Origin: Alphaproteobacteria bacterium
Lineage (GTDB): Bacteria; Pseudomonadota; Alphaproteobacteria; SP197
Direction: 5' to 3'
NCBI GenBank assembly: GCA_964291265.2
Contig: OZ219747.1
Location: 256,001-320,000, forward strand
Length of the DNA stretch: 64,000 nucleotides
Shown: positions 3,101 through 53,507 of the stretch, piece by piece
How positions within the stretch are numbered: position 1 is the first letter of the stretch
Layout of the letters: the number at the start of each line of letters is the position of its first letter
Program-made: the position numbers and the translations under genes
The notes under the pieces: generated by a model
What the model was told of the DNA's origin: nothing
Databases searched by the model: none
Seen by the model: the letters and a program-made list of their open reading frames with translations, nothing else

Positions 3101-3404
3101 GGCCGCCCTCGGTCTCGCGCCGGCGCTTCTCCACCACGCGGCCGCCACGGCGCTCGTACTTCACCCTCTCGACGACATCGCCCGCCAGACGGCGGTAGAG
3201 GGCCTGCCGTGCCGTGACATCACCGGGATCGGGCAGCAGCGTCGCCACCAGTGCCGCCCGGCATGCCGCCAGCGGTCGGCGCGCCGGCCAGATATGCAGC
3301 GTCGAGATATGTCCGTGACGCACGTTCTTCTCATGCACCGAATCGAGCGACACCCGCTCCAGCGGAAAATCCACCTCGATCAGGCGCGTGTCGGCGTCAT
3401 CCAT
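195..3404 (-). CDS. DUF1156-family adenine-specific DNA methyltransferase with Zn ribbon
   Basis: N-terminal RLIEVDFP...LHIWPARRPLAACRA signature; motif I DPFAGGG; motif IV DPPY; CKGC...CPCC; GGAGG RBS before ATG 3404. Confidence 0.9.
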   Translation of the reverse strand: MDDADTRLIEVDFPLERVSLDSVHEKNVRHGHISTLHIWPARRPLAACRAALVATLLPDPGDVTARQALYRRLAGDVVERVKYERRGGRVVEKRRRETEGGLLHWGREDGPDLQWFRERIHEAHDGRAPRVLDPFAGGGAIPLEAMRLGCEATAVDINPVAWFILKCTLDYPRRLAGETLPLPDFARSDRDFMTVFLKARGFKGRQLDGRLAALGFTTESGAAELALTEDTSCEADLAWHVRAWGWRVLAAVRAVLAVRYPTYAAFEAPAPGGPSFEPRPLALLAPDDKGAASAGSLNEEFDAAWHKDPRRPRWVAKPTVAYLWARTVRCKGCRAVLPLLKTRWLCRKENKRVLLTMTPRTDGAGVAFGIEAGVPPATGSTAQRRESDKKLGEGTMSRSGARCPCCRAIMSMEDLRLEGRAGRLDSVMTAVVVNGPEGKEYRLPQDEELRAAEISPGELEALYADIPFGLPMESTPRQGPGAARAFSVENYGLDRWDKLFTDRQLLALGSVLREMRRCADAMADLPPEWREAILVCLAPSLGRLADRGSALATWTNDPEKIRSTFARFALPVVWDFVESCPLADTTGGFIQAVEWIARVVEHLQGAAIGAPGATVLRQSALAPVPGGFDAVVTDPPYYDAIPYSNLMDFFYVWLRRALHGVVPDADTVFADPLGPKWNAAGGDGELIDDASRFGGDRAASKQAYEDGMARAFRACHEALKPEGRLVVVFANKSPDAWETLAAALIRAGFVVTGSWPIQTEMQNRQRSLNSAALASSVWLVCRKRPQARPGWDSAVLAEMRENIVRRLRDFWDAGIRGPDFVWAATGPALEAYSRYPLVKKADAPGETMAVSEFLREVRRMVVDFVVGRVLTRDGDPAAASDLDDVTTYYLLHRGDFGLGEAPAGACILYALSCNLSDRDLSDRFAILSRSGRAQLDEAEDDEAGDEDDGDADGASGGRGGKAKLLPWNRRKGKGLGSIGPGGGPVPLIDRAHKLMQLWRAGDEAKVNAYIDDSRLARNALFARLLQALVELAATGSQERAILESLSNHLDSRADYTAPRQGKLALEEAP

Positions 3405-3570
3405 TCCCTGTCCTCCGCCAGTCATGGCCAGGTCGGTCTCGCATGGTCCTGGATGGTCCATTCGCCGACCAGCGCCCGGCAGGCCCGTTCGATGGGGCGA
3501 CGTACGGGATACTCGGCTCCCTGGGAGCGATCGTGTGCAGTGTTCCCGCCCTCCCTGGCATGGCTCAGCA

Positions 3571-36486: not shown

Positions 36487-37659
36487 ATGGAGCCGATGAC
36501 ACGTCCGCTCTTCGCATTGTACGTGATGTGGCACCCCTCCTATCCGGGAGGCCGCGAGATCGCAGATCGGCTTCGTACGCACTTTGGCCGCGACCAGCGC
36601 TCTGCCATCGGCAAGTGGCGTGGCATCAGCGTTCTCGAACGCAGCGCGCCCGTTCCGGGGGCGCGTACGCCCTTGCCGATCGACTGGGACGATGCGGATT
36701 TTACCGCCGTCGTCGTGCTGACGGAAGCGACGCTTGTTGATGACCACGCTTGGGTCGACTACGTGAGCGACACTGCACGGGTCGCGCACGAGAGGGGGCT
36801 TCCCGCCGGGTTCTTCCCGTTGACGATGGAGCGTCGGGGACTCACATTGAGATTCGAACAGCAGGCGCTGCGTTGGGACCGCTGGGACGCGTCTGCTGAG
36901 GATAGGCTTCAGCGCTTCACGTCGGACCTCACCCACGAGTTCTGCCGCATGCTGCGTCATCGCATCGACCTACTCCGCGGCGGTGGCAAGGAAGCAGCGC
37001 TCGCACGTTATCTGGAGAAAATCAGTGTCTTCATCAGCCATTCGAAACATGATGAGGACGGCGAATCGGTAGGCCGCGGTATCCGTGACTGGATCCATGC
37101 GCACAGTCCGCTCGACAGCTTCTTCGATGTCCACGACATCCCACCTGGAATGTCGTTCGAGGGAGTATTGTTGCACCAGATCGGCGGAGGAGCTGTCGTA
37201 GCGGTGCATACCGACTCGTACTCGTCGCGTGAGTGGTGCCGACGCGAAGTAATCGAAGCGAAGCGACGCTTGGTGCCGATGGTCGTTGTCGATTGCGTGC
37301 GGGATACCGATCCGCGTGGAATGGCCTACCTCGGCAATGCGCCGGTCGTTCGCATGGATCCCGACCGGAGGGACAGAGTCGCCGCTGTCATCGGCTGCCT
37401 CTTGGATGAGGTATTCCACACATGGCTGTGGCTCTGTCGGGTGGGCGCTCGTCTGACGGAATCACCGGGAGTCGTATTCACGGCGCGCCCACCCGAACTG
37501 ATCGCCCTGGCGGCGTCGTTTCCTCATGATGGAGAATCGACTTCAACAATTGTGTATCCTGAACCGCTGTTGGGTGCCGATGAAGAACGGTTGTTCAAGA
37601 AAGTCGCGCCGTCAGTCCGCCTGCAAACGTTGACGGACTGGCTGGAGGAACGCCCATGA
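36487..37659 (+). CDS. TIR-domain protein with N- and C-terminal extensions
   Basis: VFISHSKHD, FFDVHDIPPG, SYSSREWCRREV (catalytic-position Glu present). Confidence 0.85.
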   Translation: MEPMTRPLFALYVMWHPSYPGGREIADRLRTHFGRDQRSAIGKWRGISVLERSAPVPGARTPLPIDWDDADFTAVVVLTEATLVDDHAWVDYVSDTARVAHERGLPAGFFPLTMERRGLTLRFEQQALRWDRWDASAEDRLQRFTSDLTHEFCRMLRHRIDLLRGGGKEAALARYLEKISVFISHSKHDEDGESVGRGIRDWIHAHSPLDSFFDVHDIPPGMSFEGVLLHQIGGGAVVAVHTDSYSSREWCRREVIEAKRRLVPMVVVDCVRDTDPRGMAYLGNAPVVRMDPDRRDRVAAVIGCLLDEVFHTWLWLCRVGARLTESPGVVFTARPPELIALAASFPHDGESTSTIVYPEPLLGADEERLFKKVAPSVRLQTLTDWLEERP

Positions 37660-38468
37660 CCTTACCCGATACCGGGATATTGACCGCCGTCGGTGTCTCT
37701 GTTTCGGAGAGCCCGGATTTATGGGCACTGGGGCTGAGCGACGGGCATCTACGTGACGCGATGGCCGAGATCGCCCTTCTGGTGCTCGCGTCGGGAAAGA
37801 GTCTGGCCTATGGTGGGGATCTGCGCCCACACGGATTCACGGAGCTTCTGGCCGAACTTGTGGGAAGGTATCGGAACCATCCTCGGCATGACGGCACCAT
37901 CGTCGTCACCGACTATCTGGCTTGGCCCGTGCATATCCGGATGACATCGGATGAGATCGTCGCATTCTCCACCGAACACGAGCTTAGCGCCCGCCTCATT
38001 TTCCTTGCGCTGAATGGTGCGCGCCTCGCGCAAGAACAACGAATGATGCTGTGCGCGCATGAGCCGGACGAAGAGGAATGGACGGAAGGATTGACCGCGA
38101 TGCGAACCGTCATGCGCGGAGACATTGGGGCGCGGATCGTTCTCGGCGGCAGGGTCGAGGACTACAAGGGGGTCATGCCCGGAATCGCCGAGGAGGCATA
38201 TCTCTCTCTGGAAGCAGGTCAGCCCGTGTTCCTCGTAGGAGGATTCGGCGGCTGTACGCGCGATATCGCGGAGACGGTCGGACTCGCCGAGCGCTGGGCC
38301 GGTTCGCGCGACGGATGGACCGGTCGGGAGCGCTTCCACAACTATTCGCCGGATGACCTGCATAACGGTCTTTCCCGCGACGAGAACGTCATCTTGGCCC
38401 GCACGCCGCATATACAGGAGGCTGCGACCCTCGTCTTGCGGGGGTTGCGACAAGTCCTCGATCATTGA
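37656..38468 (+). CDS. SLOG-superfamily nucleotide-binding protein (TIR-associated type)
   Basis: LAYGGDLR, ARIVLGG, MPGIAEEA, PVFLVGGFGG; ATGA-coupled to the TIR gene. Confidence 0.75.
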   Translation: MTLPDTGILTAVGVSVSESPDLWALGLSDGHLRDAMAEIALLVLASGKSLAYGGDLRPHGFTELLAELVGRYRNHPRHDGTIVVTDYLAWPVHIRMTSDEIVAFSTEHELSARLIFLALNGARLAQEQRMMLCAHEPDEEEWTEGLTAMRTVMRGDIGARIVLGGRVEDYKGVMPGIAEEAYLSLEAGQPVFLVGGFGGCTRDIAETVGLAERWAGSRDGWTGRERFHNYSPDDLHNGLSRDENVILARTPHIQEAATLVLRGLRQVLDH

Positions 38469-38472
38469 GGTC

Positions 38473-39078
38473 ATGATGCACAAGGTATTCGTTAGCTACC
38501 ATCACGGTAACGACCAAGAGTATAAGGAAGCGCTGGTCAAATGTGGTGAGAAGAACTCGATATTTGTGGATCGATCCGTTGACACCGGTGACATTCCTGA
38601 CGACTGGACCGACGAGCAGATCCGTCGCGCTATCAGAGACCAATATCTGAGAGACTCAACAGTGACTATTGTGTTGGTCGGCAGAGAGACCAAACGCCGA
38701 AAGCATGTCGATTGGGAAATTTACTCAAGTATGTACGATGGCCCGGTGAACAAGAAATCGGGGCTGATCGTCATCAACCTGCCGGGAGTCTCTGATGATG
38801 AATGCATTGCACCTCATGGAGATGAAGAGAAAAAATTGTTGTACCCAGAAATTACGTCATGGACACATGTCAAGGAACGGGCGGAGTACGAACGTCGGTA
38901 TCCCTGCATGCCTAATCGAATCATCGACAACTTGATGAAAGCGAACGTCAAAATATCCGTCGCCCCCTGGAAGAAAATTAATCCGGATACGCTCTGGTTT
39001 TTGATTGAGGCTGCCTTTCGTAATCGCGATCATTGCGTATACGATTTACATACGCCCATGAGGCGAGCAAATTCGTGA
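38473..39078 (+). CDS. ThsB-like TIR protein (DUF1863/MTH538)
   Basis: HKVFVSYHH, DSTVTIVLVG, KHVDWEIYSSM; visibly lower GC than flanking DNA. Confidence 0.88.
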   Translation: MMHKVFVSYHHGNDQEYKEALVKCGEKNSIFVDRSVDTGDIPDDWTDEQIRRAIRDQYLRDSTVTIVLVGRETKRRKHVDWEIYSSMYDGPVNKKSGLIVINLPGVSDDECIAPHGDEEKKLLYPEITSWTHVKERAEYERRYPCMPNRIIDNLMKANVKISVAPWKKINPDTLWFLIEAAFRNRDHCVYDLHTPMRRANS

Positions 39079-39599: not shown

Positions 39600-39922
39600 A
39601 TGGTGGCGACGGTGCACGAGCTTGCGTCATCGGCGACCGCGGTCTCTTACCACGAGCAGGACGGGTACTACGCCCGCAACGATCCCGAGCACCGCAAGGC
39701 GAGCTTCTGGCATGGCCGTGCGGCGGGCGACCTTGGGCTGAGGGGCCACGTTGTGCCGTCGCGCTTCGAGTCGGTGCTGCAGGGCAAGGTGCCGAAGACG
39801 GACATCCGTCTGGGGAAGGTCGTCGAGGGAGAGCGCCGGCACCGTCCGGGCCAAGACATCACGTTCTCGGCGCCGAAGTCGGTATCGCTGGAAGCGCTGG
39901 TGATGGGGGGCGGCATGGTGGT
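39600..39922 (+). pseudogene. MobF (TrwC-type) relaxase, 5' fragment
   Basis: SYHEQDGYY, FWHGRAAGDLGL, DITFSAPKSVSL; interrupted at GTGGT. Confidence 0.9.
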
Positions 39923-39990
39923 TGTTGATGGCTGCATAGAACGGCGGGATTTCGGCGATTTGCCGCGCTTTGTCAGGGTCGTGTTTCTTC

Positions 39991-40083
39991 CCTGTTGTCA
40001 GGTCCTATTGTCACGTCCTGTTGTCGTGGGTTCAGTGTTCGGCTGATTGTCTCCCCGAGCGCCGCCCGTTTTCCTATTGTCGT
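39991..40083 (+). repeat. 13-bp-period direct repeats CCTRTTGTC in the element's left end
   Basis: CCTGTTGTCAGGT / CCTATTGTCACGT / CCTGTTGTCGTGG in tandem, plus CCTATTGTCGT at 40073. Confidence 0.7.
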
Positions 40084-40312
40084 TTTGGTCCGGTTCGGAT
40101 TGTTCCGTCGGCCTCTGCTTCGGTCTTGGTGACGGTTGCCGGGAGGGTTTCGGTTCCGAGGCACTCGCGGGATCGTCTGTTTTCCCTGTGGTCTGGGTCG
40201 TGTTGTCCGGTCCCGGGGCGGCGTTTTTGCCGCCGCCCCGGGTGGATGCTAGATCGGCATCGAAAGAAAGAGCGATGCGATGCCGGGCAGAGTTGTGATG
40301 ACGCCCCCCGGC

Positions 40313-40382
40313 GCAGCACCCGGACGAGCCGGTCACGGGGGACCGAACTCCCGTGTATTGTCGAGCCATTTTGCGTCCGGGT
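40313..40382 (+). ncRNA. Candidate structured leader motif, copy B
   Basis: ACCCGGACG/CGTCCGGGT outer stem enclosing the hairpin CACGGGGG-ACCGAA-CTCCCGTG. Confidence 0.45.
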
Positions 40383-40406
40383 CCACCCCCGCTCTCGAGA
40401 CGGATC

Positions 40407-40883
40407 GTGTGCACGACGGGACGACTGTTCAACTGCAAGCGGTGTCAGCGGCAGGTTGTTCTCTGCCGGTCGTGTGACCGGGGGCATGTGTATTGCTCCG
40501 ATGAGTGCAGGGAGCGGTCCCGGATCGAGCGGCGCCGCGCGTCGCGTCGTCGCTACCAGAGCACGCTGAGGGGCCGTGAGACGGGCCGTCACCGCCAGCG
40601 GCGTTACCGGCTCCGCAAGGCGGAGGAGGCGCGTGCGTTGAAGGCCAGGGCGGCGATGCTTGCCGAGATCATGGGCACGCAGACGTCTGCTGTGGTGCTG
40701 CTTGGCGACGTTCCGGCGGTGTCTGGAGACGCCGGTTCCGAAGAAATCGTTACGGACCACCCTTCCCGACTGCTGCCGACCTCCCTACCTGCGGTTGTGA
40801 AGGCGCGAGAGCGACGCGAATCGCCGCTTCGGTGCGCCCGGTGCGGACGGGTCGTGACGCATGTGGTGCTGAGGGACCTGTGA
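40407..40883 (+). CDS. Cys-rich (Zn-finger) basic protein upstream of istA, outer copy
   Basis: CKRC, CRSC, CSDEC, Arg-rich helix, C-terminal CARC; start could also be 40353. Confidence 0.7.
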   Translation: MCTTGRLFNCKRCQRQVVLCRSCDRGHVYCSDECRERSRIERRRASRRRYQSTLRGRETGRHRQRRYRLRKAEEARALKARAAMLAEIMGTQTSAVVLLGDVPAVSGDAGSEEIVTDHPSRLLPTSLPAVVKARERRESPLRCARCGRVVTHVVLRDL

Positions 40884-41764
40884 TGCGGCGTTGAGGAACC
40901 AAAGGGAGGGAGTTCATGGCGATCGACGAGGACACGCGGGCGACGATCGTGCGGCTGTCGCGGGCCGAGGGCTGGGCTGTGGGGACGATTGCCCGGCATC
41001 TCGGCGTGCACCACGGCACGGTGACGCGGGCGCTCAAGGCGTCGGGGCAGGAGCGGCGGCCGCGGGCCAAGCTCATCGACCCCTTCGTTGCCTTCCTCGG
41101 GGAGCGTCTTGAGGCGTCGCCGGACCTTCCGGCCAGCACGCTCTGGCGACAGGTCGTGGCCCTGGGCTACCGCGGCGGCGAGGATCACTTCCGTCACGAC
41201 CTGCGCCGCCTCGGGCTGAGGCCGGTGAAGAGGCCCGAGCCGTCGCTGCGGCTGAGCTTCCTTCCGGGCGAGCAGGCGCAGGTTGACTGGGCCGAGTTCG
41301 GGAAGGTCCGCATTGGCCGGGCGGAGCGCAGGCTCATGGGGCTTCTCGTCACCCTCAGCTACTCGCGCCAGACTGTCCTGAGCCTGTTCCACGACGCGCG
41401 GATGGCCAGCTTCCTGCAAGGCCATGTCGAGGCTTTCGCGGCATTCGGGGGTGTGCCGCGGAGGCTTCTGTACGACAACCTGAAGAGTGCCGTGGTGACG
41501 CGCCGCGGCAAGGCGGTCACCTATCATCCGATGCTGCTCGGCCTCGCGGCCCACTATGCCTTCGAACCGAGCGCCGCCTGGCCCAGGAGCCCGCAGGAGA
41601 AGGGCCGCGTGGAACGCCGTGTGCGCTTCGCGCGCACCGGGTTCTTCGCCGGGCGCGACATCACGGTCCCGCTCGGCGAGCTCAACGCCGCGGTTCGGGA
41701 GTGGTGCTTCGGCGCCGCCGCGGAGCGGCCCTGGCCGGACGACGACAGTCTCCTGGTGCGGGAC

Positions 41765-44111
41765 CTTTCAAAGGGTCGGACTTGTATAGGTGATTCGTTT
41801 CGTGCATGCTGCGGGCATGCAGGTTGGTCTCCGCCATTTCGATTCGCAGACGCTTGACTGGTTTGCCGGCGCGTTGCGCTCCGCCGACGCCACCCGTCAC
41901 GGTCTGGCACGCGAGCTTTGCGAGCGCACCGGTTGGCGCAACGCGCTCGGCCGTCCGTGCCTGTCGGCGGCGGCGAAGGTGCTGCCGGCGCTCGCCGAGC
42001 GCGTGGGGTTGGAGCTTCCGCCGCCGCGGAGCGTGCCTGATCCGACCGTCGTGCCCGCCGTCCCGGCCGGTGACGTCCCCGACACCAAGCTGGTCTGCCT
42101 GCTGGAGGATCTCGGCCCGGTCTCGCTCGAACCGGTGGGCGAGGCCGACGATCGCCGGCTGTGGGAGGCGATGATGGCGACGCACCACCCGCTGGGATGG
42201 ACGCGCTCGCCCGGCGGCCAGGTGCGCTACTGGATCCGCTCGCAACGCCACGGCACCCTCGGCGGGATCGGCTTCGGGTCCGCGACCTGGCAGTTGCGGG
42301 CGCGGGATGAGTGGATCGCATGGTCCGCCGACGCCCGTGCCGCCAACATCGAGCGTGTGATCTGCGGTCATCGGTTTCTCCTGCTTCCCGGCGTTCGGGT
42401 CTACGGACTGGCCTCCCGGGTCCTGCGCATGGCGGCGGAGCGCATCGCCGACGATTGGGAGGCTCGCTATGCGGTGCGCCCGGTGGCGGCCTACACTCAT
42501 GTCGGTGCGGAGCACAGCGGCTATTGCTACCACTGCGCCGGCTGGACCGTGGCCGGGCGGACCAGCGGGCGCCGGGGCAAGGCCGGCACGGTGCGGGTCC
42601 TGGCCCTGGAGAGCGGCTGGCGGACGGTGCTCCACGGGACACAGCGCCGTCCACTCGGCGCCCTGGCGGGCGTCTATGACGGCACTGACGCGGACTGGGC
42701 GGAGCGGGAGTACGGGCGCACGCGCCATACCGACGGTCGGGTGCGGCGACGCATCGTTGACATGGGCCGGGCCTGGATGAAGAACATGGGGGAGGACCTG
42801 CCGATCATCTTTCCCGAGAAGGCGGAGCAGAAGGCCGCTTATCGGTTGCTGTCGAACCCGAGGGTCTCCATGGAGCACGTTCTGGAAGCGCATGTTGAGG
42901 CGACCGTGGAGCGTTGTCGGACAGAGCCTCTTGTCCTTGCGATACAGGACACGACGGCGATCAACTACAGCGGCCTGGAGGCCACGAAGGGTCTGGACAA
43001 GCTCGGCGGCGGCGGCAAGGGGAGCGTCGGCATCCTCGCCCACGCCGGTCTGGCGGTGACGTCGGAGGGCCGGCCGCTGGGCCTGTTCACGATGGATGCG
43101 GCCTTTCGGCAGGAGCCCGGGGAGGACAGTCAGCGCTGGGTCACCGGGCTTGAGCGGGCCCGGGAGCTCGCGGCGGCCTGCCCGGACACGCGTGTCGTCT
43201 CGGTCTGCGACCGCGAGGGCGACTTCTGGGAACTGCTCGCCCATGCCGCGGACGCCGGAGCCGCGCTGCTGGTGCGTGCGAGCCGTTCGGCGAAACAGCG
43301 CGTGGGTGAGCCCGACGGCAAAAAGACGTGCCTGTGGAAGCATGTCGCGGCCCGGCCGCTGGTCGCGGTGACGGAGCTGACGATCCCGGCCGCTGGCGGC
43401 CCGCGCGCCCGCAAGGAGCGCGTCGCCCGTCTCGAGATCCGCACGGCACAGGTCGAGGTGGCGCCGCCGCAAAAAGAGCGCGACGCGGAGCCTGTGTCCA
43501 TGTTCGCGGTCTCGGCCAGCGAGGCCGGAACCGGTGACGGCGACGAGGCCCTGCACTGGCTGCTGCTGACCACCGAGCGCCCGGCACCAGGGGAGGCCGA
43601 GGCCGTGCACGCGGCGACCGTCCTGGGCTGGTACCGGACGCGATGGAGCATCGAGACCTGGTTCCGCACGCTGAAGACCGGGACCCGGATCAAGGACCGC
43701 CGGCTCGACAGGGCCGACGACCTGAAGACGTGCCTTGCCTTCGACGCCGTCACCGCCGTCCATGTTGCCGACCTGACCGTGCTTGCGCGCGAGCGTCCCT
43801 TGACCCCGGCGAGCGAGGTGTTTGCCGAGGAGGACATCGACCTGCTCCGCACGCTGCTGGAATCCCAGGGTCACCGGGAGGTCCGGGCGATGGGCGATGT
43901 CCGTGCCGTCGTCATCGGCCTTGGGCGCCTTGTCGGGTGGCATCCCACGCCGCGCCAGACGCTCCCGGGAGCGAAGAAGCTCTGGCAGGGTCTCGAAAGG
44001 CTGAACTGGGCGATCCAGGTGCGTGACGCACTTGGCGCAAGAAGGCGGCGCGAAGCACTCGGTGAGAGAAGGCGGGAGTAACATCCCTATACACGCGTGG
44101 GTGGTTGAAAG
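41765..44111 (+). mobile_element. IS4-family element (2347 bp)
   Basis: Imperfect IRs CTTTCAA-N11-TGTATAGG at both ends; 9-bp TSD GTGCGGGAC at 41756-41764 and 44112-44120. Confidence 0.9.
41817..44081 (+). CDS. DUF4338 (DruA-like) domain fused to an IS4/Tn5-type DDE transposase
   Basis: N-half HHPLG, RDEWIAW, RFLLLPGV..GLASRVL, GYCYHCAGW; C-half KAAYRLLSN, IQDTT, CDREGD, YRTRWSIETWFRTLKTG (YREK), PGAKKLWQG. Confidence 0.85.
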   Translation: MQVGLRHFDSQTLDWFAGALRSADATRHGLARELCERTGWRNALGRPCLSAAAKVLPALAERVGLELPPPRSVPDPTVVPAVPAGDVPDTKLVCLLEDLGPVSLEPVGEADDRRLWEAMMATHHPLGWTRSPGGQVRYWIRSQRHGTLGGIGFGSATWQLRARDEWIAWSADARAANIERVICGHRFLLLPGVRVYGLASRVLRMAAERIADDWEARYAVRPVAAYTHVGAEHSGYCYHCAGWTVAGRTSGRRGKAGTVRVLALESGWRTVLHGTQRRPLGALAGVYDGTDADWAEREYGRTRHTDGRVRRRIVDMGRAWMKNMGEDLPIIFPEKAEQKAAYRLLSNPRVSMEHVLEAHVEATVERCRTEPLVLAIQDTTAINYSGLEATKGLDKLGGGGKGSVGILAHAGLAVTSEGRPLGLFTMDAAFRQEPGEDSQRWVTGLERARELAAACPDTRVVSVCDREGDFWELLAHAADAGAALLVRASRSAKQRVGEPDGKKTCLWKHVAARPLVAVTELTIPAAGGPRARKERVARLEIRTAQVEVAPPQKERDAEPVSMFAVSASEAGTGDGDEALHWLLLTTERPAPGEAEAVHAATVLGWYRTRWSIETWFRTLKTGTRIKDRRLDRADDLKTCLAFDAVTAVHVADLTVLARERPLTPASEVFAEEDIDLLRTLLESQGHREVRAMGDVRAVVIGLGRLVGWHPTPRQTLPGAKKLWQGLERLNWAIQVRDALGARRRREALGERRRE

Positions 44112-44761
44112 GTGCGGGACGCCTTCGCCCGGGAGAGGGAGCACCTGATCGTCCTTCCCGTCGACCCCTTCCCGCATCACGAGGTCCGCCCGGTGCGCAT
44201 CGACAAGACCTGCCACGCCCGCTTCGACACCAACGACTACAGCGTTCCGGGTAGCTTCTCCAAGGCCCTGCTGACGCTGGTCGCCGACCGCGACGAGGTT
44301 CGCATCCTCGACGGCGCCGACGAGGTCGCGCGCCACCGACGCTCCTACGACAGGAAGCAGGCCGTCACCGATCCGGAGCATGCCAGGGCGATCGCCGCGG
44401 GCAAGCGGCGGGCCCGCTCCATGAGCGTCCGCGACCGGGTCCTGCGCACCGTGCCGCGGGCCGAGGAGATGCTGGCGCGCGCCGGGACCAACGGGCGCAA
44501 CGTGGCCTCCTGCGCCCGGATGCTGGAGACGCTTCTCAACGCGCACGGCGCCGACGCTCTCGACCGGGCTGTCGCCACGGCGCTGGAGCGCGGCTCGTGC
44601 CACCCCGAAACCGTGCGCGTCATCATCGAGGAGCGCCGCCGGGAGCAGGGCCTGCCGCCCCTCAGCATCGCCGACGACGGCCGCGGCGGCCGTGGCACGA
44701 CGCCGCGGGGGACCGCTCTCGACGCCTACGACAGGCCCGAAGCCAGCGCCAGGAACAAGAC

Positions 44762-45463
44762 ATGAGCGAGCTCAGGGAGCGTGCCCGGGCGCTCGGCCTC
44801 CACGGGCTCGTCGAACGCTGGGACGAGGTCGCCGGGACCGCATGGATCGAGGAGGTGGTCAGCGGCGAGGAACAGGCCCGCAGGGCCCGCAGCCACGAGC
44901 GCCGCCGCGCCGCGGCGCGGCTGCCCGCCTTCAAGCCCCTGGCGGACTTCGACTGGACATGGCCGCGCGACATCAGCCGGGCTCATGTCGAAGCGCTCCT
45001 CGGCCTCGGCTTCGTCGACCGTGCGGACAACGCCGTGCTCGTCGGCGGGCAGGGCACCGGAAAGACCATGATCGCCGCCAACGTGGCGCACCAGGCCCTG
45101 CTGCACGGCCACACCGTCCGCTTCGAGAAGGCGCCGGAACTGCTCGAGGCACTCGCCGAGACCGTCTCGCGCAGCGAGCTGCGCCGCCGCCTCGCGATCC
45201 TCGCCAGGCCCCGCCTGCTCGTCCTCGACGAAATCGGCTACGTGACCCTCGAAAGCCACCATGCCGACATCCTCTACGCCATCGTCTCGCGGCGCTATCA
45301 GCGCCGCTCGACCATGGTCACGACAAGCCTCGCCTTCGCCCAGTGGGACCGCGTCTTCCCCAGCGCCTCCGGCATCGCCGGCACCGTCGACCGGCTCATG
45401 CACGACGCAACCCTCATCTCCATCGACAGCGACTCCTGGCGGCTCAGGCGTGAAACCCGATAA
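44762..45463 (+). CDS. istB: IS21 helper ATPase IstB (outer copy)
   Basis: FDWTWP, GGQGTGKT, LVLDEIGY, VDRLMH, SWR. Confidence 0.92.
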   Translation: MSELRERARALGLHGLVERWDEVAGTAWIEEVVSGEEQARRARSHERRRAAARLPAFKPLADFDWTWPRDISRAHVEALLGLGFVDRADNAVLVGGQGTGKTMIAANVAHQALLHGHTVRFEKAPELLEALAETVSRSELRRRLAILARPRLLVLDEIGYVTLESHHADILYAIVSRRYQRRSTMVTTSLAFAQWDRVFPSASGIAGTVDRLMHDATLISIDSDSWRLRRETR

Positions 45464-45997
45464 ACCCCGCCGCGTCGACTTCGACGCCGTCAAGCGCATG
45501 CCGTTCGAACGCATCGCCGCCGACTGGGGATACGTCCGCGACGAACAGGCCTCGACACGCGCCAACCCCGTCCTGTGCGCACCCGGCCTGCCGAAGCTCG
45601 TCACGAAGTGCCTCAACTGTCGGCGGCGATTTAGAACGGCGGGATATTGGCGGAGAACCGCTCTTTTGGGCGCTGATCGTGTGAGTGGGTGACCACGACA
45701 GGAGAACGTGCGGCATTGGACGAAGGTCCGCCCGGTCTTTGTTTTCTGCCTATTGTTGGATCCCATTGGTCTTGCATTGACGTTGACGATGTCGTTCCGG
45801 TCGGCGTTTTCTGGCGTTCGGCGTTTGTGGAACGTGATGTGGGAGGGGAGCTTCAGGCTTTTGCGCGTGGTTTCGTTCTGGCGTTCTCCGTCCTCGTCGT
45901 GGTTCGTCGGGCGGGACGATCTCGAGGCTGGAGAGCTGACGGTTTCTGTTGCGCTGGGCGAAGAGGCTGCGTGCGTTGCGGTTGCGGCGGCGCAGGG

Positions 45998-46713
45998 TGC
46001 GGCAGGCGTCGAGTGTTTTCGGGCGGATGCTGCGACCTGTGAGCCAGTCCGGCGGCGGATCGGGCGTTGCTGCGGCTCAGCGGCTGCGGCAGTCTCGTGA
46101 TGTGGTGTCGTTTGGACGGCCCGGGGGTTTCCCGGGGAGGCTGAGAGGCGCGTCGGGGTGAGACGTTCTCATTCCTGGATGGTAACGCGTGACCGCGTTC
46201 AAGGGTCTTGCGAGATTACGTGTCCCTTCCGTAGCCGCGTGGCGGTTCGATGTCCTCGAGAGCCTCGATGTCGGCATCGGCGACGATCTGCAGGCGTTCT
46301 CCGTAAGGCGTGTCACGGAGGGTTTCGGGGATGCTGTCGAGGCGGTCACGCCATTCGTCCTGCAGGGTGCGGCAGGCGTTGAGTGTTTTCGGGCGGATGC
46401 TGCGACCTGTAAGCCAGTCCGGCCAGCGGCTGCGGCAGTCTCGTGATGCGGTGTCGTTTGGACGGCCCGGGGGTTTCCCGGGGAGGCTGAGAAGCGCGTC
46501 GGGGTGAGACGTTCTCATTCCTGGATGGTAACGCGTGACCGCGTTCAAGGGTCTTGCGGGATCACGTATCCCTTCCGTAGCCGCGTGGCGGTTCGATGTC
46601 CTCGAGGGCCTCGATGTCGGCATCGGCGACGCTCTGCAGGCGTTCTCCGTAAGGCGTGTCACGGAGGCTTTCGGGGATGCTGTCGAGGTGGTCACGCCAT
46701 TCGTCCTGCAGGG
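45998..46713 (-). repeat. Internal tandem duplication (346/370 bp), inner copy
   Basis: Mirror image of 51834-52549. Confidence 0.85.
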
Positions 46714-46852
46714 CGCGCAGTTCGGCCACGGCGTCGTTCCAGCGTTGCGGTCGCGAGCGCCGGTCACGGTGCTTTGGGGTGTGGACGGGAGGGATGCCGG
46801 CCTTGCGCCGTTCCCGGTATCGCCGCTGCTTTTCGGCGGGCGTGAGGGGCAT
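46562..46852 (-). CDS. Small hypothetical protein, inner copy
   Basis: LTPAEKQRRYRERRK...RSRPQRWNDAV...EPPRGYGRD; AGGAG RBS; alternative ATGA-coupled start at 46882. Confidence 0.72.
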   Translation of the reverse strand: MPLTPAEKQRRYRERRKAGIPPVHTPKHRDRRSRPQRWNDAVAELRALQDEWRDHLDSIPESLRDTPYGERLQSVADADIEALEDIEPPRGYGRDT

Positions 46853-46878
46853 GAGTGGTCTCCTTGTGACGGACGTGG

Positions 46879-47772
46879 TCATGATCTCGCTTGTGGTTCT
46901 TTGGTCCTGGCGTTGACGACGTCGTTCCAGTCGGCGTTTTCCGGCGGTCTGCGTCTGTGGAACGAGACGTGGGAGGGGAGCTTCATCTTTTTGCGCAGGG
47001 TTTCGGCCTGTCGCTCTCCGGCCTCGTCGTGGTCCTGGGCGAGGACGATGGTCCTGACGTTGGGCAGGCTGCTTGCGGCGAGGCTGATCTGTTCGTGCTG
47101 TCTTCGCGAGGGTGCCCCGGCGGTGGAGAGGAAGGCGTGGCTGGGGGGACATTGGTCGATCTGGGCCAGGCTGAGGGCGTCGACGGCGCTTTCGGTGATG
47201 ACGAGGGCCTCGAGGTCCGCGGCGGTTCCGGCGCGGACGGCGAACAGGCTTCGGGTTCCACCGGTGGCGAAGCGTTTCGGTCCGTCGGGGGGACCGATCT
47301 CGAAGCCGGTGAGCTTTCGCTTCCTGTTGCGATGGGCGAAGAGGACGCGTCCGTTGTGGTCGCGGCGGACCAGGGGGCGGCAGGTGTCGAGGGTCTCCGG
47401 GAGGATGCCGCGCCCGGTGAGCCAGTCCGGGGCCGCATCGGGCGTTGCCGCGGCCCAGAGGCTGCGGAAGTCGCGTGGCGCGGCGTCGGGTGCTGCGAAG
47501 CGGGTGCAGATGTCGGCGAAGGCCAGTCCGCGGTTGAGCATGAAGTCGATGACGGTTCCGTTGTCTTCATCGTTCTGGGTGTTGAAGTAGACCCAGTGTC
47601 CGTTGTTGAGGCACTTCGTGACGAGCTTCGGCAGGCCGGGTGCGCACAGGACGGGGTTGGCGCGTGTCGAGGCCTGTTCGTCGCGGACGTATCCCCAGTC
47701 GGCGGCGATGCGTTCGAACGGCATGCGCTTGACGGCGTCGAAGTCGACGCGGCGGGGTTTATCGGGTTTCAC
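46879..47772 (-). CDS. Toprim-domain primase-like protein (DUF3991/Toprim_2-like), intact
   Basis: GHWVYF...GTVIDF, WLTGRGI, ITESAVDALS (conserved Glu), LAQDHDEAG (DxD); GTG start overlaps the end of istB. Confidence 0.8.
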   Translation of the reverse strand: MKPDKPRRVDFDAVKRMPFERIAADWGYVRDEQASTRANPVLCAPGLPKLVTKCLNNGHWVYFNTQNDEDNGTVIDFMLNRGLAFADICTRFAAPDAAPRDFRSLWAAATPDAAPDWLTGRGILPETLDTCRPLVRRDHNGRVLFAHRNRKRKLTGFEIGPPDGPKRFATGGTRSLFAVRAGTAADLEALVITESAVDALSLAQIDQCPPSHAFLSTAGAPSRRQHEQISLAASSLPNVRTIVLAQDHDEAGERQAETLRKKMKLPSHVSFHRRRPPENADWNDVVNARTKEPQARS

Positions 47773-48460
47773 GCCTGAGCCGCCAGGAGTCGCTGTCGAT
47801 GGAGATGAGGGTTGCGTCGTGCATGAGCCGGTCGACGGTGCCGGCGATGCCGGAGGCGCTGGGGAAGACGCGGTCCCACTGGGCGAAGGCGAGGCTTGTC
47901 GTGACCATGGTCGAGCGGCGCTGATAGCGCCGCGAGACGATGGCGTAGAGGATGTCGGCATGGTGGCTTTCGAGGGTCACGTAGCCGATTTCGTCGAGGA
48001 TGAGCAGGCGGGGCCTGGCGAGGATCGCGAGGCGGCGGCGCAGCTCGCTGCGCGAGGCGGTCTCGGCGAGTGCCTCGAGCAGTTCCGGCGCCTTCTCGAA
48101 GCGGACGGTGTGGCCGTGCAGCAGGGCCTGGTGCGCCACGTTGGCGGCGATCATGGTCTTTCCGGTGCCCTGCCCGCCGACGAGCACGGCGTTGTCCGCA
48201 CGGTCGACGAAGCCGAGGCCGAGGAGCGCTTCGACATGAGCCCGGCTGATGTCGCGCGGCCATGTCCAGTCGAAGTCCGCCAGGGGCTTGAAGGCGGGCA
48301 GTCGCGCCGCGGCGCGGCGGCGCTCGTGGCTGCGGGCCCTGCGGGCCTGTTCCTCGCCGCTGACCACCTCCTCGATCCATGCGGTCCCGGCGACCTCGTC
48401 CCAGCGTTCGACGAGCCCGTGGAGGCCGAGCGCCCGGGCACGCTCCCTGAGCTCGCTCAT
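47759..48460 (-). CDS. istB: IS21 helper ATPase IstB (inner copy)
   Basis: Walker A GGQGTGKT, Walker B LILDE. Confidence 0.92.
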   Translation of the reverse strand: MSELRERARALGLHGLVERWDEVAGTAWIEEVVSGEEQARRARSHERRRAAARLPAFKPLADFDWTWPRDISRAHVEALLGLGFVDRADNAVLVGGQGTGKTMIAANVAHQALLHGHTVRFEKAPELLEALAETASRSELRRRLAILARPRLLILDEIGYVTLESHHADILYAIVSRRYQRRSTMVTTSLAFAQWDRVFPSASGIAGTVDRLMHDATLISIDSDSWRLRRETR

Positions 48461-49950
48461 GTCTTGTTCCTGGCGCTGGCTTCGGGCCTGTCGTAGGCGT
48501 CGAGAGCGGTCCCCCGCGGCGTCGTGCCACGGCCGCCGCGGCCGTCGTCGGCGATGCTGAGGGGCGGCAGGCCCTGCTCCCGGCGGCGCTCCTCGATGAT
48601 GACGCGCACGGTTTCGGGGTGGCACGAGCCGCGCTCCAGCGCCGTGGCGACAGCCCGGTCGAGAGCGTCGGCGCCGTGCGCGTTGAGAAGCGTCTCCAGC
48701 ATCCGGGCGCAGGAGGCCACGTTGCGCCCGTTGGTCCCGGCGCGCGCCAGCATCTCCTCGGCCCGCGGCACGGTGCGCAGGACCCGGTCGCGGACGCTCA
48801 TGGAGCGGGCCCGCCGCTTGCCCGCGGCGATCGCCCTGGCATGCTCCGGATCGGTGACGACCTGCTTCCTGTTGTAGGAGCGTCGGTGGCGCGCGACCTC
48901 GTCGGCGCCGTCGAGGATGCGAACCTCGTCGCGGTCGGCGACCAGCGTCAGCAGGGCCTTGGAGAAGCTACCCGGAACGCTGTAGTCGTTGGTGTCGAAG
49001 CGGGCGTGGCAGGTCTTGTCGATGCGCACCGGGCGGACCTCGTGATGCGGGAAGGGGTCGACGGGAAGGACGATCAGGTGCTCCCTCTCCCGGGCGAAGG
49101 CGTCCCGCACCAGGAGACTGTCGTCGTCCGGCCAGGGCCGCTCCGCGGCGGCGCCGAAGCACCACTCCCGAACTGCGGCGTTGAGCTCGCCGAGCGGGAC
49201 CGTGATGTCGCGCCCGGCGAAGAACCCGGTGCGCGCGAAGCGCACACGGCGTTCCACGCGGCCCTTCTCCTGCGGGCTCCTGGGCCAGGCGGCGCTCGGT
49301 TCGAAGGCATAGTGGGCCGCGAGGCCGAGCAGCATCGGATGATAGGTGACCGCCTTGCCGCGGCGCGTCACCACGGCACTCTTCAGGTTGTCGTACAGAA
49401 GCCTCCGCGGCACACCCCCGAATGCCGCGAAAGCCTCGACATGGCCTTGCAGGAAGCTGGCCATCCGCGCGTCGTGGAACAGGCTCAGGACAGTCTGGCG
49501 CGAGTAGCTGAGGGTGACGAGAAGCCCCATGAGCCTGCGCTCCGCCCGGCCAATGCGGACCTTCCCGAACTCGGCCCAGTCAACCTGCGCCTGCTCGCCC
49601 GGAAGGAAGCTCAGCCGCAGCGACGGCTCGGGCCTCTTCACCGGCCTCAGCCCGAGGCGGCGCAGGTCGTGACGGAAGTGATCCTCGCCGCCGCGGTAGC
49701 CCAGAGCCACGACCTGTCGCCAGAGCGTGCTGGCCGGAAGGTCCGGCGACGCCTCAAGACGCTCCCCGAGGAAGGCAACGAAGGGGTCGATGAGCTTGGC
49801 CCGCGGCCGCCGCTCCTGCCCCGACGCCTTGAGCGCCCGCGTCACCGTGCCGTGGTGCACGCCGAGATGCCGGGCAATCGTCCCCACAGCCCAGCCCTCG
49901 GCCCGCGACAGCCGCACGATCGTCGCCCGCGTGTCCTCGTCGATCGCCAT
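48457..49950 (-). CDS. istA: IS21 transposase IstA (inner copy, intact)
   Basis: N-terminal HTH, PGEQAQVDW, LSYSR, YDNLKSAV, EKGRVER, FDTNDYSVP. Confidence 0.94.
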   Translation of the reverse strand: MAIDEDTRATIVRLSRAEGWAVGTIARHLGVHHGTVTRALKASGQERRPRAKLIDPFVAFLGERLEASPDLPASTLWRQVVALGYRGGEDHFRHDLRRLGLRPVKRPEPSLRLSFLPGEQAQVDWAEFGKVRIGRAERRLMGLLVTLSYSRQTVLSLFHDARMASFLQGHVEAFAAFGGVPRRLLYDNLKSAVVTRRGKAVTYHPMLLGLAAHYAFEPSAAWPRSPQEKGRVERRVRFARTGFFAGRDITVPLGELNAAVREWCFGAAAERPWPDDDSLLVRDAFAREREHLIVLPVDPFPHHEVRPVRIDKTCHARFDTNDYSVPGSFSKALLTLVADRDEVRILDGADEVARHRRSYNRKQVVTDPEHARAIAAGKRRARSMSVRDRVLRTVPRAEEMLARAGTNGRNVASCARMLETLLNAHGADALDRAVATALERGSCHPETVRVIIEERRREQGLPPLSIADDGRGGRGTTPRGTALDAYDRPEASARNKT

Positions 49951-49982
49951 GAACTCCCTCCCTTTGGTTCCTCAACGCCGCA

Positions 49983-50459
49983 TCACAGGTCCCTCAGCAC
50001 CACATGCGTCACGACCCGTCCGCACCGGGCGCACCGAAGCGGCGATTCGCGTCGCTCTTGCGCCTTCACAACCGCAGGTAGGGAGGTCGGCAGCAGTCGG
50101 GAAGGGTGGTCCGTAACGATTTCTTCAGAACCGGCGTCTCCAGACACCGCCGGAACGTCGCCAAGCAGCACCACAGCAGACGTCTGCGTGCCCATGATCT
50201 CGGCAACCATCGCCGCCCTGGCCTTCAACGCACGCGCCTCCTCCGCCTTGCGGAGCCGGTAACGCCGCTGGCGGTGACGGCCCGTCTCACGGCCCTTCAG
50301 CGTGCTCTGGTAGCGACGACGCGACGCGCGGCGCCGCTCGATCCGGGACCGCTCCCTGCACTCCTTGGAGCAATACACATGCCCCCGGTCACACGACCGG
50401 CAGAGAACAACCTGCCGCTGACACCGCCTGCAGTTGAACAGTCGTCCTGTCGTGCACAC
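49983..50459 (-). CDS. Cys-rich (Zn-finger) basic protein, inner copy
   Basis: Near-identical to 40407-40883. Confidence 0.7.
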   Translation of the reverse strand: MCTTGRLFNCRRCQRQVVLCRSCDRGHVYCSKECRERSRIERRRASRRRYQSTLKGRETGRHRQRRYRLRKAEEARALKARAAMVAEIMGTQTSAVVLLGDVPAVSGDAGSEEIVTDHPSRLLPTSLPAVVKAQERRESPLRCARCGRVVTHVVLRDL

Positions 50460-50483
50460 CGTCCGTCTCGAGAGCGGGGGTGG

Positions 50484-50553
50484 ACCCGGACGCAAAATGG
50501 CTCGACAATACACGGGAGTTCGGTCCCCCGTGACCGGCTCGTCCGGGTGCTGC
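50484..50553 (-). ncRNA. Candidate structured leader motif, copy C
   Basis: Identical to copy B even though the leader upstream of it differs between the two element copies. Confidence 0.45.
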
Positions 50554-51694
50554 GCCGGGGGGCGTCACAACTCCGCCCGGCATCGCATCGCTCTTTCTCT
50601 TGATGCCGATCTAGCATCCACCCGGGGCGGCGGCAAAGACGCCGCCCCGGGACCGGACAACGCGACCCGCCCACAGGGAAGACAAACAATCCCGCGAGTG
50701 CCTCGGAACCGGAACCCTCCCGGCAACCGTCACCAAGACCGAAGCAGAGGTCGACGGAACCCGAACCGGACCAAAACGACAATAGGAAAAGACGGCGGCG
50801 CTCGGGGAGACAACCAGCCGAACACTCAAACCACGACAACAGGACGTGACAATAGGACCTGACAACAGGGAAGAAACACGACCCTGACAAAGCGCGGCAA
50901 ATCGCCGAAATCCCGCCGTTCTATGCAGCCATCAACATCAACAACGGACACTGGGTCTACTTCAACACCCAGAACGATGAAGACAACGGAACCGTCATCG
51001 ACTTCATGCTCAACCGCGGACTGGCCTTCGCCGACATCTGCACCCGCTTCACAGCACCCGACGCCGCGCCACGCGACTTCCGCAGCCTCTGGGCCGCGGC
51101 AACGCCCGATGCGGCCCCGGACTGGCTCACCGGGCGCGGCATCCTCCCGGAGACCCTCGACACCTGCCGCCCCCTGGTCCGCCGCGACCACAACGGACGC
51201 GTCCTCTTCGCCCATCGCAACAGGAAGCGAAAGCTCACCGGCTTCGAGATCGGTCCCCCCGACGGACCGAAACGCTTCGCCACCGGTGGAACCCGAAGCC
51301 TGTTCGCCGTCCGCGCCGGAACCGCCGCGGACCTCGAGGCCCTCGTCATCACCGAAAGCGCCGTCGACGCCCTCAGCCTGGCCCAGATCGACCAATGTCC
51401 CCCCAGCCACGCCTTCCTCTCCACCGCCGGGGCACCCTCGCGAAGACAGCACGAACAGATCAGCCTCGCCGCAAGCAGCCTGCCCAACGTCAGGACCATC
51501 GTCCTCGCCCAGGACCACGACGAGGCCGGAGAGCGACAGGCCGAAACCCTGCGCAAAAAGATGAAGCTCCCCTCCCACGTCTCGTTCCACAGACGCAGAC
51601 CGCCGGAAAACGCCGACTGGAACGACGTCGTCAACGCCAGGACCAAAGAACCACAAGCGAGATCATGACCACGTCCGTCACAAGGAGACCACTC

Positions 51695-51985
51695 ATGCCC
51701 CTCACGCCCGCCGAAAAGCAGCGGCGATACCGGGAACGGCGCAAGGCCGGCATCCCTCCCGTCCACACCCCAAAGCACCGTGACCGGCGCTCGCGACCGC
51801 AACGCTGGAACGACGCCGTGGCCGAACTGCGCGCCCTGCAGGACGAATGGCGTGACCGCCTCGACAGCATCCCCGAAAGCCTCCGTGACACGCCTTACGG
51901 AGAACGCCTGCAGAGCGTCGCCGATGCCGACATCGAGGCCCTCGAGGACATCGAACCGCCACGCGGCTACGGAAGGGATACGTGA
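51695..51985 (+). CDS. Small hypothetical protein, outer copy
   Basis: Same protein as 46852-46562; AAGGAG RBS. Confidence 0.72.
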   Translation: MPLTPAEKQRRYRERRKAGIPPVHTPKHRDRRSRPQRWNDAVAELRALQDEWRDRLDSIPESLRDTPYGERLQSVADADIEALEDIEPPRGYGRDT

Positions 51986-52549
51986 TCCCGCAAGACCCTT
52001 GAACGCGGTCACGCGTTACCATCCAGGAATGAGAACGTCTCACCCCGACGCGCTTCTCAGCCTCCCCGGGAAACCCCCGGGCCGTCCAAACGACACCGCA
52101 TCACGAGACTGCCGCAGCCGCTGGCCGGACTGGCTTACAGGTCGCAGCATCCGCCCGAAAACACTCAACGCCTGCCGCACCCTGCAGGACGAATGGCGTG
52201 ACCGCCTCGACAGCATCCCCGAAACCCTCCGTGACACGCCTTACGGAGAACGCCTGCAGAGCGTCGCCGATGCCGACATCGAGGCTCTCGAGGACATCGA
52301 ACCGCCACGCGGCTACGGAAGGGACACGTAATCTCGCAAGACCCTTGAACGCGGTCACGCGTTACCATCCAGGAATGAGAACGTCTCACCCCGACGCGCC
52401 TCTCAGCCTCCCCGGGAAACCCCCGGGCCGTCCAAACGACACCACATCACGAGACTGCCGCAGCCGCTGAGCCGCAGCAACGCCCGATCCGCCGCCGGAC
52501 TGGCTCACAGGTCGCAGCATCCGCCCGAAAACACTCGACGCCTGCCGCA
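51834..52549 (+). repeat. Internal tandem duplication, units 51834-52179 and 52180-52549
   Basis: Repeats the 3' half of the small ORF, a spacer with two hairpins and part of a decayed Toprim gene; unit 2 has 24 extra bp. Confidence 0.88.
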
Positions 52550-52765
52550 CCCTGCGCCGCCGCAACCGCAACGCACGCAGCCTCTTCGCCCAGCGCAACA
52601 GAAACCGTCAGCTCTCCAGCCTCGAGATCGTCCCGCCCGACGAACCACGACGAGGCCGGAAAACGCCAGAACGAAACCACGCGCAAAAGCCTGAAGCTCC
52701 CCTCCCACATCACGTTCCACAAACGCCGAACGCCAGAAAACGCCGACCGGAACGACATCGTCAAC
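52437..52765 (+). pseudogene. Decayed, internally deleted paralogue of the Toprim gene
   Basis: Aligns by eye to ~51059-51268 and ~51515-51635. Confidence 0.75.
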
Positions 52766-52929
52766 GTCAATGCAAGACCAATGGGATCCAACAATAGGCA
52801 GAAAACAAAGACCGGGCGGACCTTCGTCCAATGCCGCACGTTCTCCTGTCGTGGTCACCCACTCACACGATCAGCGCCCAAAAGAGCGGTTCTCCGCCAA
52901 TATCCCGCCGTTCTAAATCGCCGCCGACA

Positions 52930-53010
52930 GTGGTGGCGGGCTTTCGCCATCTCACCGGCCGTGACCTCGATCCCCAACTTCACACGCACTGCGTTCTGGC
53001 GAACATGCAA
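52930..53010 (+). pseudogene. MobF relaxase, continuation with HUH motif
   Basis: VVAGFRHLTGRDLDPQLHTHCVLANM, in frame with the 39600 fragment after removing the element. Confidence 0.9.
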
Positions 53011-53507
53011 GCGCTCCTGATGAAGGCGATGATGTCAACGAGACCTGGCAGCAGCCACGAGGTCGTCGACACCGGTGCGACGGAAACTGGCGTGCGGAAC
53101 GGTCGTCGTGGAAGATCCGAAGACCGCCGACATGACCCGGAGTACAAGGGGCACGGTCGAGCATCCCGGGACGAACGTGAAGGCGAGGTCCGGGCTGAAC
53201 CGCGGGGTCTTCGCCACGGACCGGGGTGAGTTGCGGGCGATGCCCGGCTGAAGGGCTCCGCGCCTCGTCTGAGGTGAACGCGGCGCATGCCATGCCAGAC
53301 GTATGCGGTGCAACAACGGCTTGACGCCGCCTCGCGTCCGTCGCAAGCGACATTTCACATGCTCAGGCCTCATGGCCATGCGAACCTGAATGCGGCCCGC
53401 AACATCAGGCGTCGGGGACTGGCGCGCCTCCACGGGGAAAGAGCGTTGCCGTCAGGCATGATCCGTAAAGCGGATCGGATCCTCGCGGCATGAGCCTCTC
53501 ACTCAAC
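53011..53507 (+). pseudogene. Degraded TnpB (IS200/IS605) 3' remnant
   Basis: GTVVVEDPKTADMTRSTRGTVEHPGTNVKARSGLNR, stops and frameshifts, SRPSQATFH, HANLNAARNI; ends in TCAAC. Confidence 0.8.

Follow-up and report, generated by a model that had tools for sequence, protein, structure and literature searches.

Why should a mobile element change its base composition from one end to the other when all of its genes point the same way? The question is raised by an IS21-type insertion sequence (IS) of 5,320 bp in the genome of an alphaproteobacterium (contig OZ219747.1, positions 256,001 to 320,000; this stretch of 64,000 nucleotides is called the window). A sequence-only reading had described the element, which carries a primase-like DUF3991/Toprim gene, as G/T-rich on the left and C/A-rich on the right of its coding strand, with a flip in the middle, and had proposed repeated DNA synthesis running inward from both ends or from the junction of a circle, in keeping with replicative transposition or a self-replicating circle. 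Our analysis indicates a smooth gradient of mutational origin that does not depend on the Toprim gene. We consider it somewhat probable (roughly 0.55) that this gradient is the scar of homologous repair or gene conversion among near-identical copies, acting through damage to single-stranded DNA, for which the primase-like gene is not needed.

The skew is a gradient

Keto skew, (G+T-A-C)/N, was measured on the coding strand of the intact copy (45618-50937, minus strand). Values fall from +0.24 in the left end through +0.12 in ORF1 (open reading frame 1), 0.00 in istA and -0.12 in istB to -0.25 in the Toprim gene, -0.22 in the small ORF and -0.28 in the right tail, although all genes share one orientation. 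The first 266 bases stand at +0.35 and the last 266 at -0.32, and the GC and TA skews shift in parallel. Fourfold-degenerate sites follow the same course, with +0.39 in ORF1, +0.28, -0.06 and -0.19 in successive thirds of istA, -0.46 in istB, -0.65 in the Toprim gene and -0.30 (n = 54) in the small ORF; silent and non-coding sites carry the strongest signal, which is chiefly one of G versus C. The end-to-end slope is -0.29. None of 2000 block shuffles fell below -0.096 (z -9.6), and none of the 2344 unique-sequence 5.3-kb windows of contig C2 of the source genome (G000) reached it (minimum -0.143). The course from G/T to C/A along co-oriented genes is thus confirmed by shuffles, genomic windows and silent sites.

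The supposed flip is not. By the Akaike information criterion (AIC, all bases), a linear trend (7187.6; quadratic 7183.4) describes the skew better than the best step (7212.3) or a constant (7336.2), while on silent sites alone line and step can barely be separated (965.6 vs 967.9). The skew is therefore a smooth gradient. Its zero crossing lies about 1.86 kb into the 5.32 kb, within istA (window position ~49080); the host baseline is crossed at 2.12 kb (~48820), near the midpoint of the 4.0-4.6-kb relatives lacking the duplicated tail. The mirror image in the inverted copy, which the earlier reading had pointed out, is not independent evidence, as the copies are 99-100% identical.

Three ordinary causes were rejected. 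Neither host replication nor gene orientation explains the gradient, since the copies divide 15 to 14 between leading-like and lagging-like strands and the host's leading/lagging difference at silent sites is just 0.06. Amino-acid composition fails because the slope survives within codon boxes (istA+istB, -0.44 per kb with this control). The host also has no usual within-gene or operon trend of this kind: 1138 single-copy genes give -0.007+/-0.005 per kb, and 125 operon-like runs average -0.002 end to end.

Direction of mutation

The right tail contains a dead partial duplicate of the Toprim gene, which was compared with the live gene at 217 positions where the latter matches at least 70% of outgroups. 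The duplicate had acquired G>A at 10/58 sites against C>T at 1/100 (p=2e-4), C>A at 7/100 against G>T at 0/58 (p=0.048) and T>C at 3/27 against A>G at 0/32 (p=0.09). The bottom strand has its 5' end nearby, and read on it these changes become C>T, G>T and A>G, the usual types of single-strand damage. A non-reversible model of silent sites in 12 relatives, from which five gene rows containing stops were excluded, gave top-strand C>T rates of 0.34, 0.20 and 0.06 from left to right and G>A rates of 0.07, 0.12 and 0.16, a sixfold fall and a 2.5-fold rise in rates that are partly tied to composition. The gradient is mutational and directional, as would follow from damage to whichever strand has the nearer 5' end.

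Selection could in principle have produced such a pattern if silent sites were adjusted to make transcripts from either flank progressively richer in C and poorer in G, for example for Rho termination, or if they were tuned for transposase expression. The peak of the signal at silent and non-coding sites and its mostly G-versus-C character suit this idea, as does the finding that recent variants have no significant mutational polarity. We nevertheless regard selection as improbable: the dead duplicate gained directional changes, T/A and C>A included, at positions conserved in the live gene, and the keto bias of the tuf genes described below follows copy number and not the gene.

IS21 elements with and without the Toprim gene

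If the Toprim protein primed replication of an excised circle from its joined ends, the skew would mark the two replichores of a self-replicating element. Ten of ten Toprim-bearing elements have a negative slope over istA+istB (-0.30+/-0.023 per kb), whereas 11 Toprim-less sisters from unrelated hosts average -0.14 per kb with 8/11 negative (p=0.04-0.05), and of the G000 families compared, none exceeds the present element in end-to-end amplitude. The difference disappears once hosts are matched. A search of the host genus gave 35 matches outside G000, seven of them of the known Toprim family; 18 of the other 28 were examined, those passed over being mostly identical copies and partial matches. 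All 18 were negative and 17 had no match to the Toprim profile; the locus with a weak upstream Toprim match (L589) was excluded from the Toprim-less set. The ten non-redundant Toprim-less elements, which include 2.1-kb elements made of istA and istB only and two measured on istA alone, were all negative, with -0.31+/-0.025 per kb (Mann-Whitney p=0.52 against the Toprim-bearing set). The Toprim gene was accordingly rejected as the cause. The sequence-only reading had itself named the same pattern in plain IS21 elements as grounds for refuting it, and this is the pattern seen here; its link of the skew to the Toprim gene and to a self-replicating circle is unsupported.

Other observations agree. 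The gradient fits better than two replichores do, the line beating the step by 25 AIC units on all bases with a near tie on silent sites. Pfam searches of the element's proteins found only IstA, IstB, the Toprim protein and two small family-less ORFs, with no initiator, helicase or polymerase. In sequencing run X1, contigs of the element are about 34-36 times as deep as a flank contig, close to the 35-38 chromosomal copies, contig depth being a rough measure. No joined-end circle junctions were seen in three contig sets of one study or among the genome's mapped ends, although contigs cannot show absence. A self-replicating circle is unlikely, and we give very little credence to one primed by the Toprim protein.

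The Toprim protein resembles the primase domain of T7 gp4 and Twinkle (model with a predicted local distance difference test score, pLDDT, of 92), and its acidic residues are kept, which would suit a primase: E194, D249 and D281 are invariant and D247 is present in at least 90% of 46 homologues, in alignment with T7 E157 and D207/D209. At the position of T7 K122, presumably the basic catalytic residue of the primase N-terminal subdomain, the homologues instead have a near-invariant glutamate (E158). The conserved columns of the 46-homologue alignment contain no cysteine that would indicate a zinc-binding domain. The protein appears primase-like by fold and acidic residues; with glutamate at the K122 position, primase activity is at most putative.

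The source genome also encodes a second Toprim-bearing transposon of ~5.16 kb (G000:C2:460796-465956, minus; L133/L020; 7 Toprim matches), with an rve transposase, overlapping AAA_22/AAA_25 ORFs, a DUF3991/Toprim gene and ~5-bp target duplications. It has the same gradient (z -9.9), a point in favor of the Toprim-primed circle.

Other mobile families and transposition

The slope is not confined to IS21. In the source genome, the slope is negative in 14/15 other IS families (pooled -0.30+/-0.02). Silent-site slopes per kb, controlled for codon box, were surveyed in other alphaproteobacterial genomes, non-redundant at 85% with one locus per evident copy set, and were -0.87 for IS5 (5/5 negative), -0.47 for IS3 (10/11), -0.47 for IS256 (5/5), -0.43 for IS630 (2/3), -0.26 for IS66 (9/12) and -0.17 for IS21 (16/22). 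Among complete ORFs of IMG/VR contigs, clustered at 80%, IS5 gave -1.03 (13/13) and IS630 -0.55 (16/18). One IS66 unit of the source genome contains an ORF with a weak match to D12-class adenine methyltransferases.

Transposition itself, carried out with host enzymes, could leave such a trace. Synthesis primed by the 3'-OH of the flank would leave the strand with its 5' end there single-stranded longest, whether by copy-out with strand displacement, by cointegrate forks or by two-ended repair of the donor gap; this is the ends-inward idea without the Toprim protein. It predicts the polarity and the spectrum seen in the dead duplicate. According to the available part of 10.1101/2023.06.07.543989, the flank 3'-OH primes synthesis in copy-out/paste-in transposition and IS21 is among the circle-forming families, and the accessible text of PMC7780238 has either transposon end able to attack the other; the portion of PMC10122671 at hand contains nothing on the in vivo pathway. 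The variation in strength from IS5 down to IS110 (about -0.07 over the two surveys) also fits, and the weak families are better explained by transposition than by recombination among copies.

Several results do not fit. Transposition cannot account for the tuf genes. IS256, the best-studied copy-out family, is mixed, with 5/5 negative in one survey and 8/17 in the other, and IS5 is strongest though not known for copy-out as far as the seen part of 10.1101/2023.06.07.543989 goes; since family strengths do not track the copy-out families listed there, copy-out was rejected as the sole cause. IS630 and IS4 are families that we take to be cut-and-paste. An IS110-containing 2-kb unit with four copies (L505, G000:C2:2591488-2593465), in which a relative of the element's small ORF is found at 79% identity, also has a negative whole slope (-0.18, z -4.7), and the reverse transcriptase gene of a group II intron in G000 leans weakly the same way (-0.22+/-0.12). 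We consider transposition as the origin rather unlikely, yet it remains the main rival. The earlier proposal thus survives in so far as a strand-specific process organised around the element ends is supported, while replicative transposition is not required, IS5, IS630 and tuf having the same sign.

Duplicated genes that do not move

The two identical tuf genes of G000 (L504; C2:2929550 and 2946395) have slopes of -0.57+/-0.18 per kb, against +0.02+/-0.02 per kb in the 40 single-copy genes with the highest share of T-ending silent codons. Across 30 alphaproteobacterial tuf loci, 18/19 in two-copy genomes are negative (-0.40+/-0.04) compared with 6/11 in one-copy genomes (-0.13+/-0.06; p=0.02); ORF pieces upstream of tuf, taken as fusA, give -0.07+/-0.04. 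In a second phylum (that of genome G119), at matched GC content and with pair classes judged by hidden Markov model scores, near-identical tuf pairs have -0.305+/-0.064 (8/9 negative), single internal copies -0.115+/-0.06 (7/11), apparently diverged pairs +0.005 (2/4) and contig-edge singles -0.16 (3/4), with p=0.04 and 0.012. Silent-site keto skew by quartile is 0.69, 0.72, 0.61 and 0.29 in the G000 tuf genes, unlike single-copy genes, and 0.49, 0.56, 0.40 and 0.30 in the two-copy genes of the second phylum versus about 0. The tuf pattern is related to the gradient of the element and not identical with it. The same sign, weak but significant, is found in a three-copy relaxase-helicase gene of 2,459 aa (L494, G000:C2:2151341-2158721; -0.08+/-0.01 per kb).

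Recombination among copies as a probable origin

The element copies bear signs of recombination. The source genome holds 30 full copies, 98-100% identical over 5,320 bp, and 35-38 copies per element position; the four-gamete test on them fails for 156/457 site pairs less than 200 nt apart and for 1592/2864 farther apart, and one copy has a ~140-bp divergent tract. The copies are mosaics that show recombination, with conversion not separated from crossover or recurrent change.

We propose that a break within a repeat would be resected 5'-to-3', so that the top strand becomes single-stranded leftward and the bottom strand rightward. Deamination of cytosine and adenine and oxidation of guanine in the single-stranded tails would then be fixed by fill-in synthesis, each strand would thereby turn G/T-rich toward its own 5' end, and gene conversion would spread the changes into all copies. 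For a net gradient to arise, repair from another copy would have to be more frequent for breaks inside the repeat than for those outside it. In yeast, bidirectional resection has been reported to leave the top strand mutated at C on the left and at G on the right (PMC6786661, accessible part). Break resection, two-ended repair of the donor gap and strand displacement from the flank 3'-OH all share this polarity because all expose the strand with the nearer 5' end. We prefer the recombination route because it alone of the three also covers tuf; recombination among copies and transposition-linked synthesis may also act together.

A number of observations weigh against recombination as the origin. 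Some families are weak or flat, among them IS110 (-0.05+/-0.075, 5/9 negative) and Tn3 (-0.03, 6/8) in the alphaproteobacterial genomes, IS110 (-0.08+/-0.04, 21/31), IS256 (0.00, 8/17) and the IS4 group (-0.03, 1/3) in IMG/VR, and one 22-copy DDE family of G000 stands at +0.11+/-0.11; differences of this kind point to some contribution from transposition. When isolated recent differences between copies were pooled across the multi-copy families that had enough rows, C>T (44) did not significantly outnumber G>A (40; p=0.47), and the dead duplicate is a single historical event. In the alphaproteobacterial tuf comparison, copy number is confounded by GC content and by the draft state of assemblies; the two-copy genomes G121 and G122 show no tuf slope; and the sense strand of two-copy tuf stays G/T-rich from end to end, with no zero crossing. 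The yeast polarity came from an added deaminase (PMC6786661, in the text available), and the related genomes and elements in our comparisons are not independent.

Comparison with known systems

The repeats named GRINS in 2021 have correlated GC and TA skews, are linked to gene conversion and often overlap transposases, which are their commonest members outside polyketide synthase (PKS) genes; the accessible part of that paper leaves their mechanism, and the presence of both skew signs on one strand, unexplained (PMC8256042). The element falls within the published definition. Where a duplicated region >500 bp at >80% identity is asked for, it has its 30 full copies. Mean absolute skews in 150-nt windows, with a cut-off of >0.15, are 0.151 (barely above) for GC and 0.234 for TA, rising to 0.21 and 0.37 in the last 1.3 kb, whereas 0/419 unique windows pass. 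The GC and TA skews correlate with r=0.57 vs -0.10 in unique DNA, most strongly at third codon positions. The element, too, is a repeat, with mosaic copies, that shows both signs on one strand. In contrast, GRINS are abrupt patches in PKS modules with no fixed polarity stated in the available text (PMC8256042), while the element has a smooth gradient bounded by its ends, always G/T-rich at each strand's 5' end, and a directional mutation spectrum.

The 5'C-3'G single-switch clusters of yeast have the same polarity as the element, with C mutated in the left part of the top strand and G in its right part; as far as the accessible portion of PMC6786661 goes, they are single events in a eukaryote with an added deaminase, whereas the element has a long-term composition gradient in bacterial repeats. 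Linear keto gradients in mitochondrial DNA and linear viruses are ascribed to the time spent single-stranded during strand displacement. Those belong to replicons with defined origins, while the element lacks replication machinery and its slope is shared by repeats that are not replicons.

The IS21 affinity is clear from IstA (DDE) and IstB (AAA+) in order, TG...CA ends, imperfect inverted repeats, 5-7-bp target duplications (present at 26/30 full copies) and high copy number. The element differs from the usual IS21 in three extra ORFs (the Cys-rich ORF1, the DUF3991/Toprim gene and the small ORF) and in a ~1-kb right tail of internal duplications. Our literature search, from which most subscription journals were absent, yielded neither a report of an IS21 carrying a primase-like gene nor a description of an end-polarised skew gradient in an IS.

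The locus and its relatives

The region 39923..52929 consists of three nested insertions inside a TrwC relaxase gene (Table 1). The outer copy is flanked by a 5-bp target duplication (GTGGT, 39918-39922 and 52930-52934), the inverted inner copy by another (TCAAC, 45613-45617 and 50938-50942), and the IS4/IS50-type element has the 9-bp duplication GTGCGGGAC on either side. DruA domains are fused to several IS4-type, ISAs1-type and DDE_1 transposases of the source genome. ESM Atlas matches of the small ORF are unnamed clusters only. Beside the broken relaxase gene, TIR_2, SLOG cluster 2 and ThsB-like TIR genes stand consecutively (window 36487-39078) as a Thoeris-like defence cluster.

Table 1. 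Features of the nested locus, in window coordinates
Feature	Position	Strand	Remarks
TrwC/MobF relaxase gene, 5' piece	39600..39922	+	Insertion target; Pfam PF08751, E 4.7e-19
Outer element copy, left part (element positions 1-3333)	39923..45617	+	Left end, ORF1, split istA, istB, Toprim codons 1-54
Outer copy ORF1	40353-40883	+	
IS4/IS50-type element in outer istA	41765..44111	+	DruA-fused transposase ORF 41790-44081; Pfam DruA, Tnp_DNA_bind
Inner copy, intact 5,320-bp IS21-type element	45618..50937	-	Inverted, within outer copy's Toprim gene; TG...CA ends; full gradient
Right tail, C/A-rich	45618..46561	-	Most of one 346-bp tandem duplication unit and right inverted repeat
Dead partial Toprim-gene duplicate in right tail	45778..46114	-	81-83% identical to Toprim gene
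Small ORF (100 aa)	46562..46864	-	No family
DUF3991/Toprim_2 gene	46879..47766	-	Resembles T7 gp4/Twinkle primase domain
istB, AAA+ helper	47759..48457	-	Pfam IstB_IS21, E 9e-51
istA, DDE transposase	48457..49950	-	NCBIfam transpos_IS21 above cut-off; Pfam Mu-transpos_C_2, HTH_23, rve
ORF1, cysteine-rich	49983..50513	-	No Pfam family
Left non-coding end, G/T-rich	50514..50937	-	TA skew +0.45
Outer element copy, right part (element positions 3329-5320)	50938..52929	+	
Relaxase gene, next piece past insertion	52930..53020	+	Pfam PF08751, E 2.3e-8 on 52930-53100

Insertion of the element into itself occurred five times in G000 (window 45618-50937; C2 near 4058043, 4066882, 4147072 and 4237410) and also in a relative (L062, L063), so the element lacks target immunity or prefers itself as a target. 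By an approximate tally, a Toprim match follows istB in ~67 related loci, in metagenome-assembled genomes titled Alphaproteobacteria, Paracoccaceae, Rhodobacteraceae or Amylibacter. Among the matches listed, the more distant sisters (L112-L131 without L114) carry istB, in most cases together with ORF1 and istA, and lack a Toprim match; ORF1 is thus also found in Toprim-less sister elements. A scan of metagenome contigs with the Toprim protein gave no matches. In sequencing run X2, a contig (L132:294-5621) runs across the unoccupied target site of one copy; this insertion therefore differs between samples. Repeats make up about 24% of contig C2, chiefly IS elements and the group II intron (~15 copies).

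Implications

The gradient of the element is real and belongs to a known but unexplained type of skew; it is not evidence of self-replication. Accordingly, a skew inversion within a mobile element is no evidence that it has a replication origin of its own. The origin of GRINS-type skew is left as an open question in the accessible part of the naming paper (PMC8256042), and this locus makes the question testable, as it offers a fixed polarity, a dead internal duplicate from which the mutation spectrum is read directly, and matched controls, namely IS21 elements that carry or lack Toprim and tuf genes present once or twice. Tentatively, and with the odds somewhat against so broad a statement, bacterial multi-copy DNA in general, mobile or not, might bear a fixed-polarity scar, left by single-strand damage in ectopic break repair, in which each strand is G/T-rich toward its 5' end. 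Such a general scar would supply a mechanism for GRINS and account for both skew signs on one strand, and the slope would become a gauge, readable from sequence, of a repeat's gene-conversion history and former boundaries.

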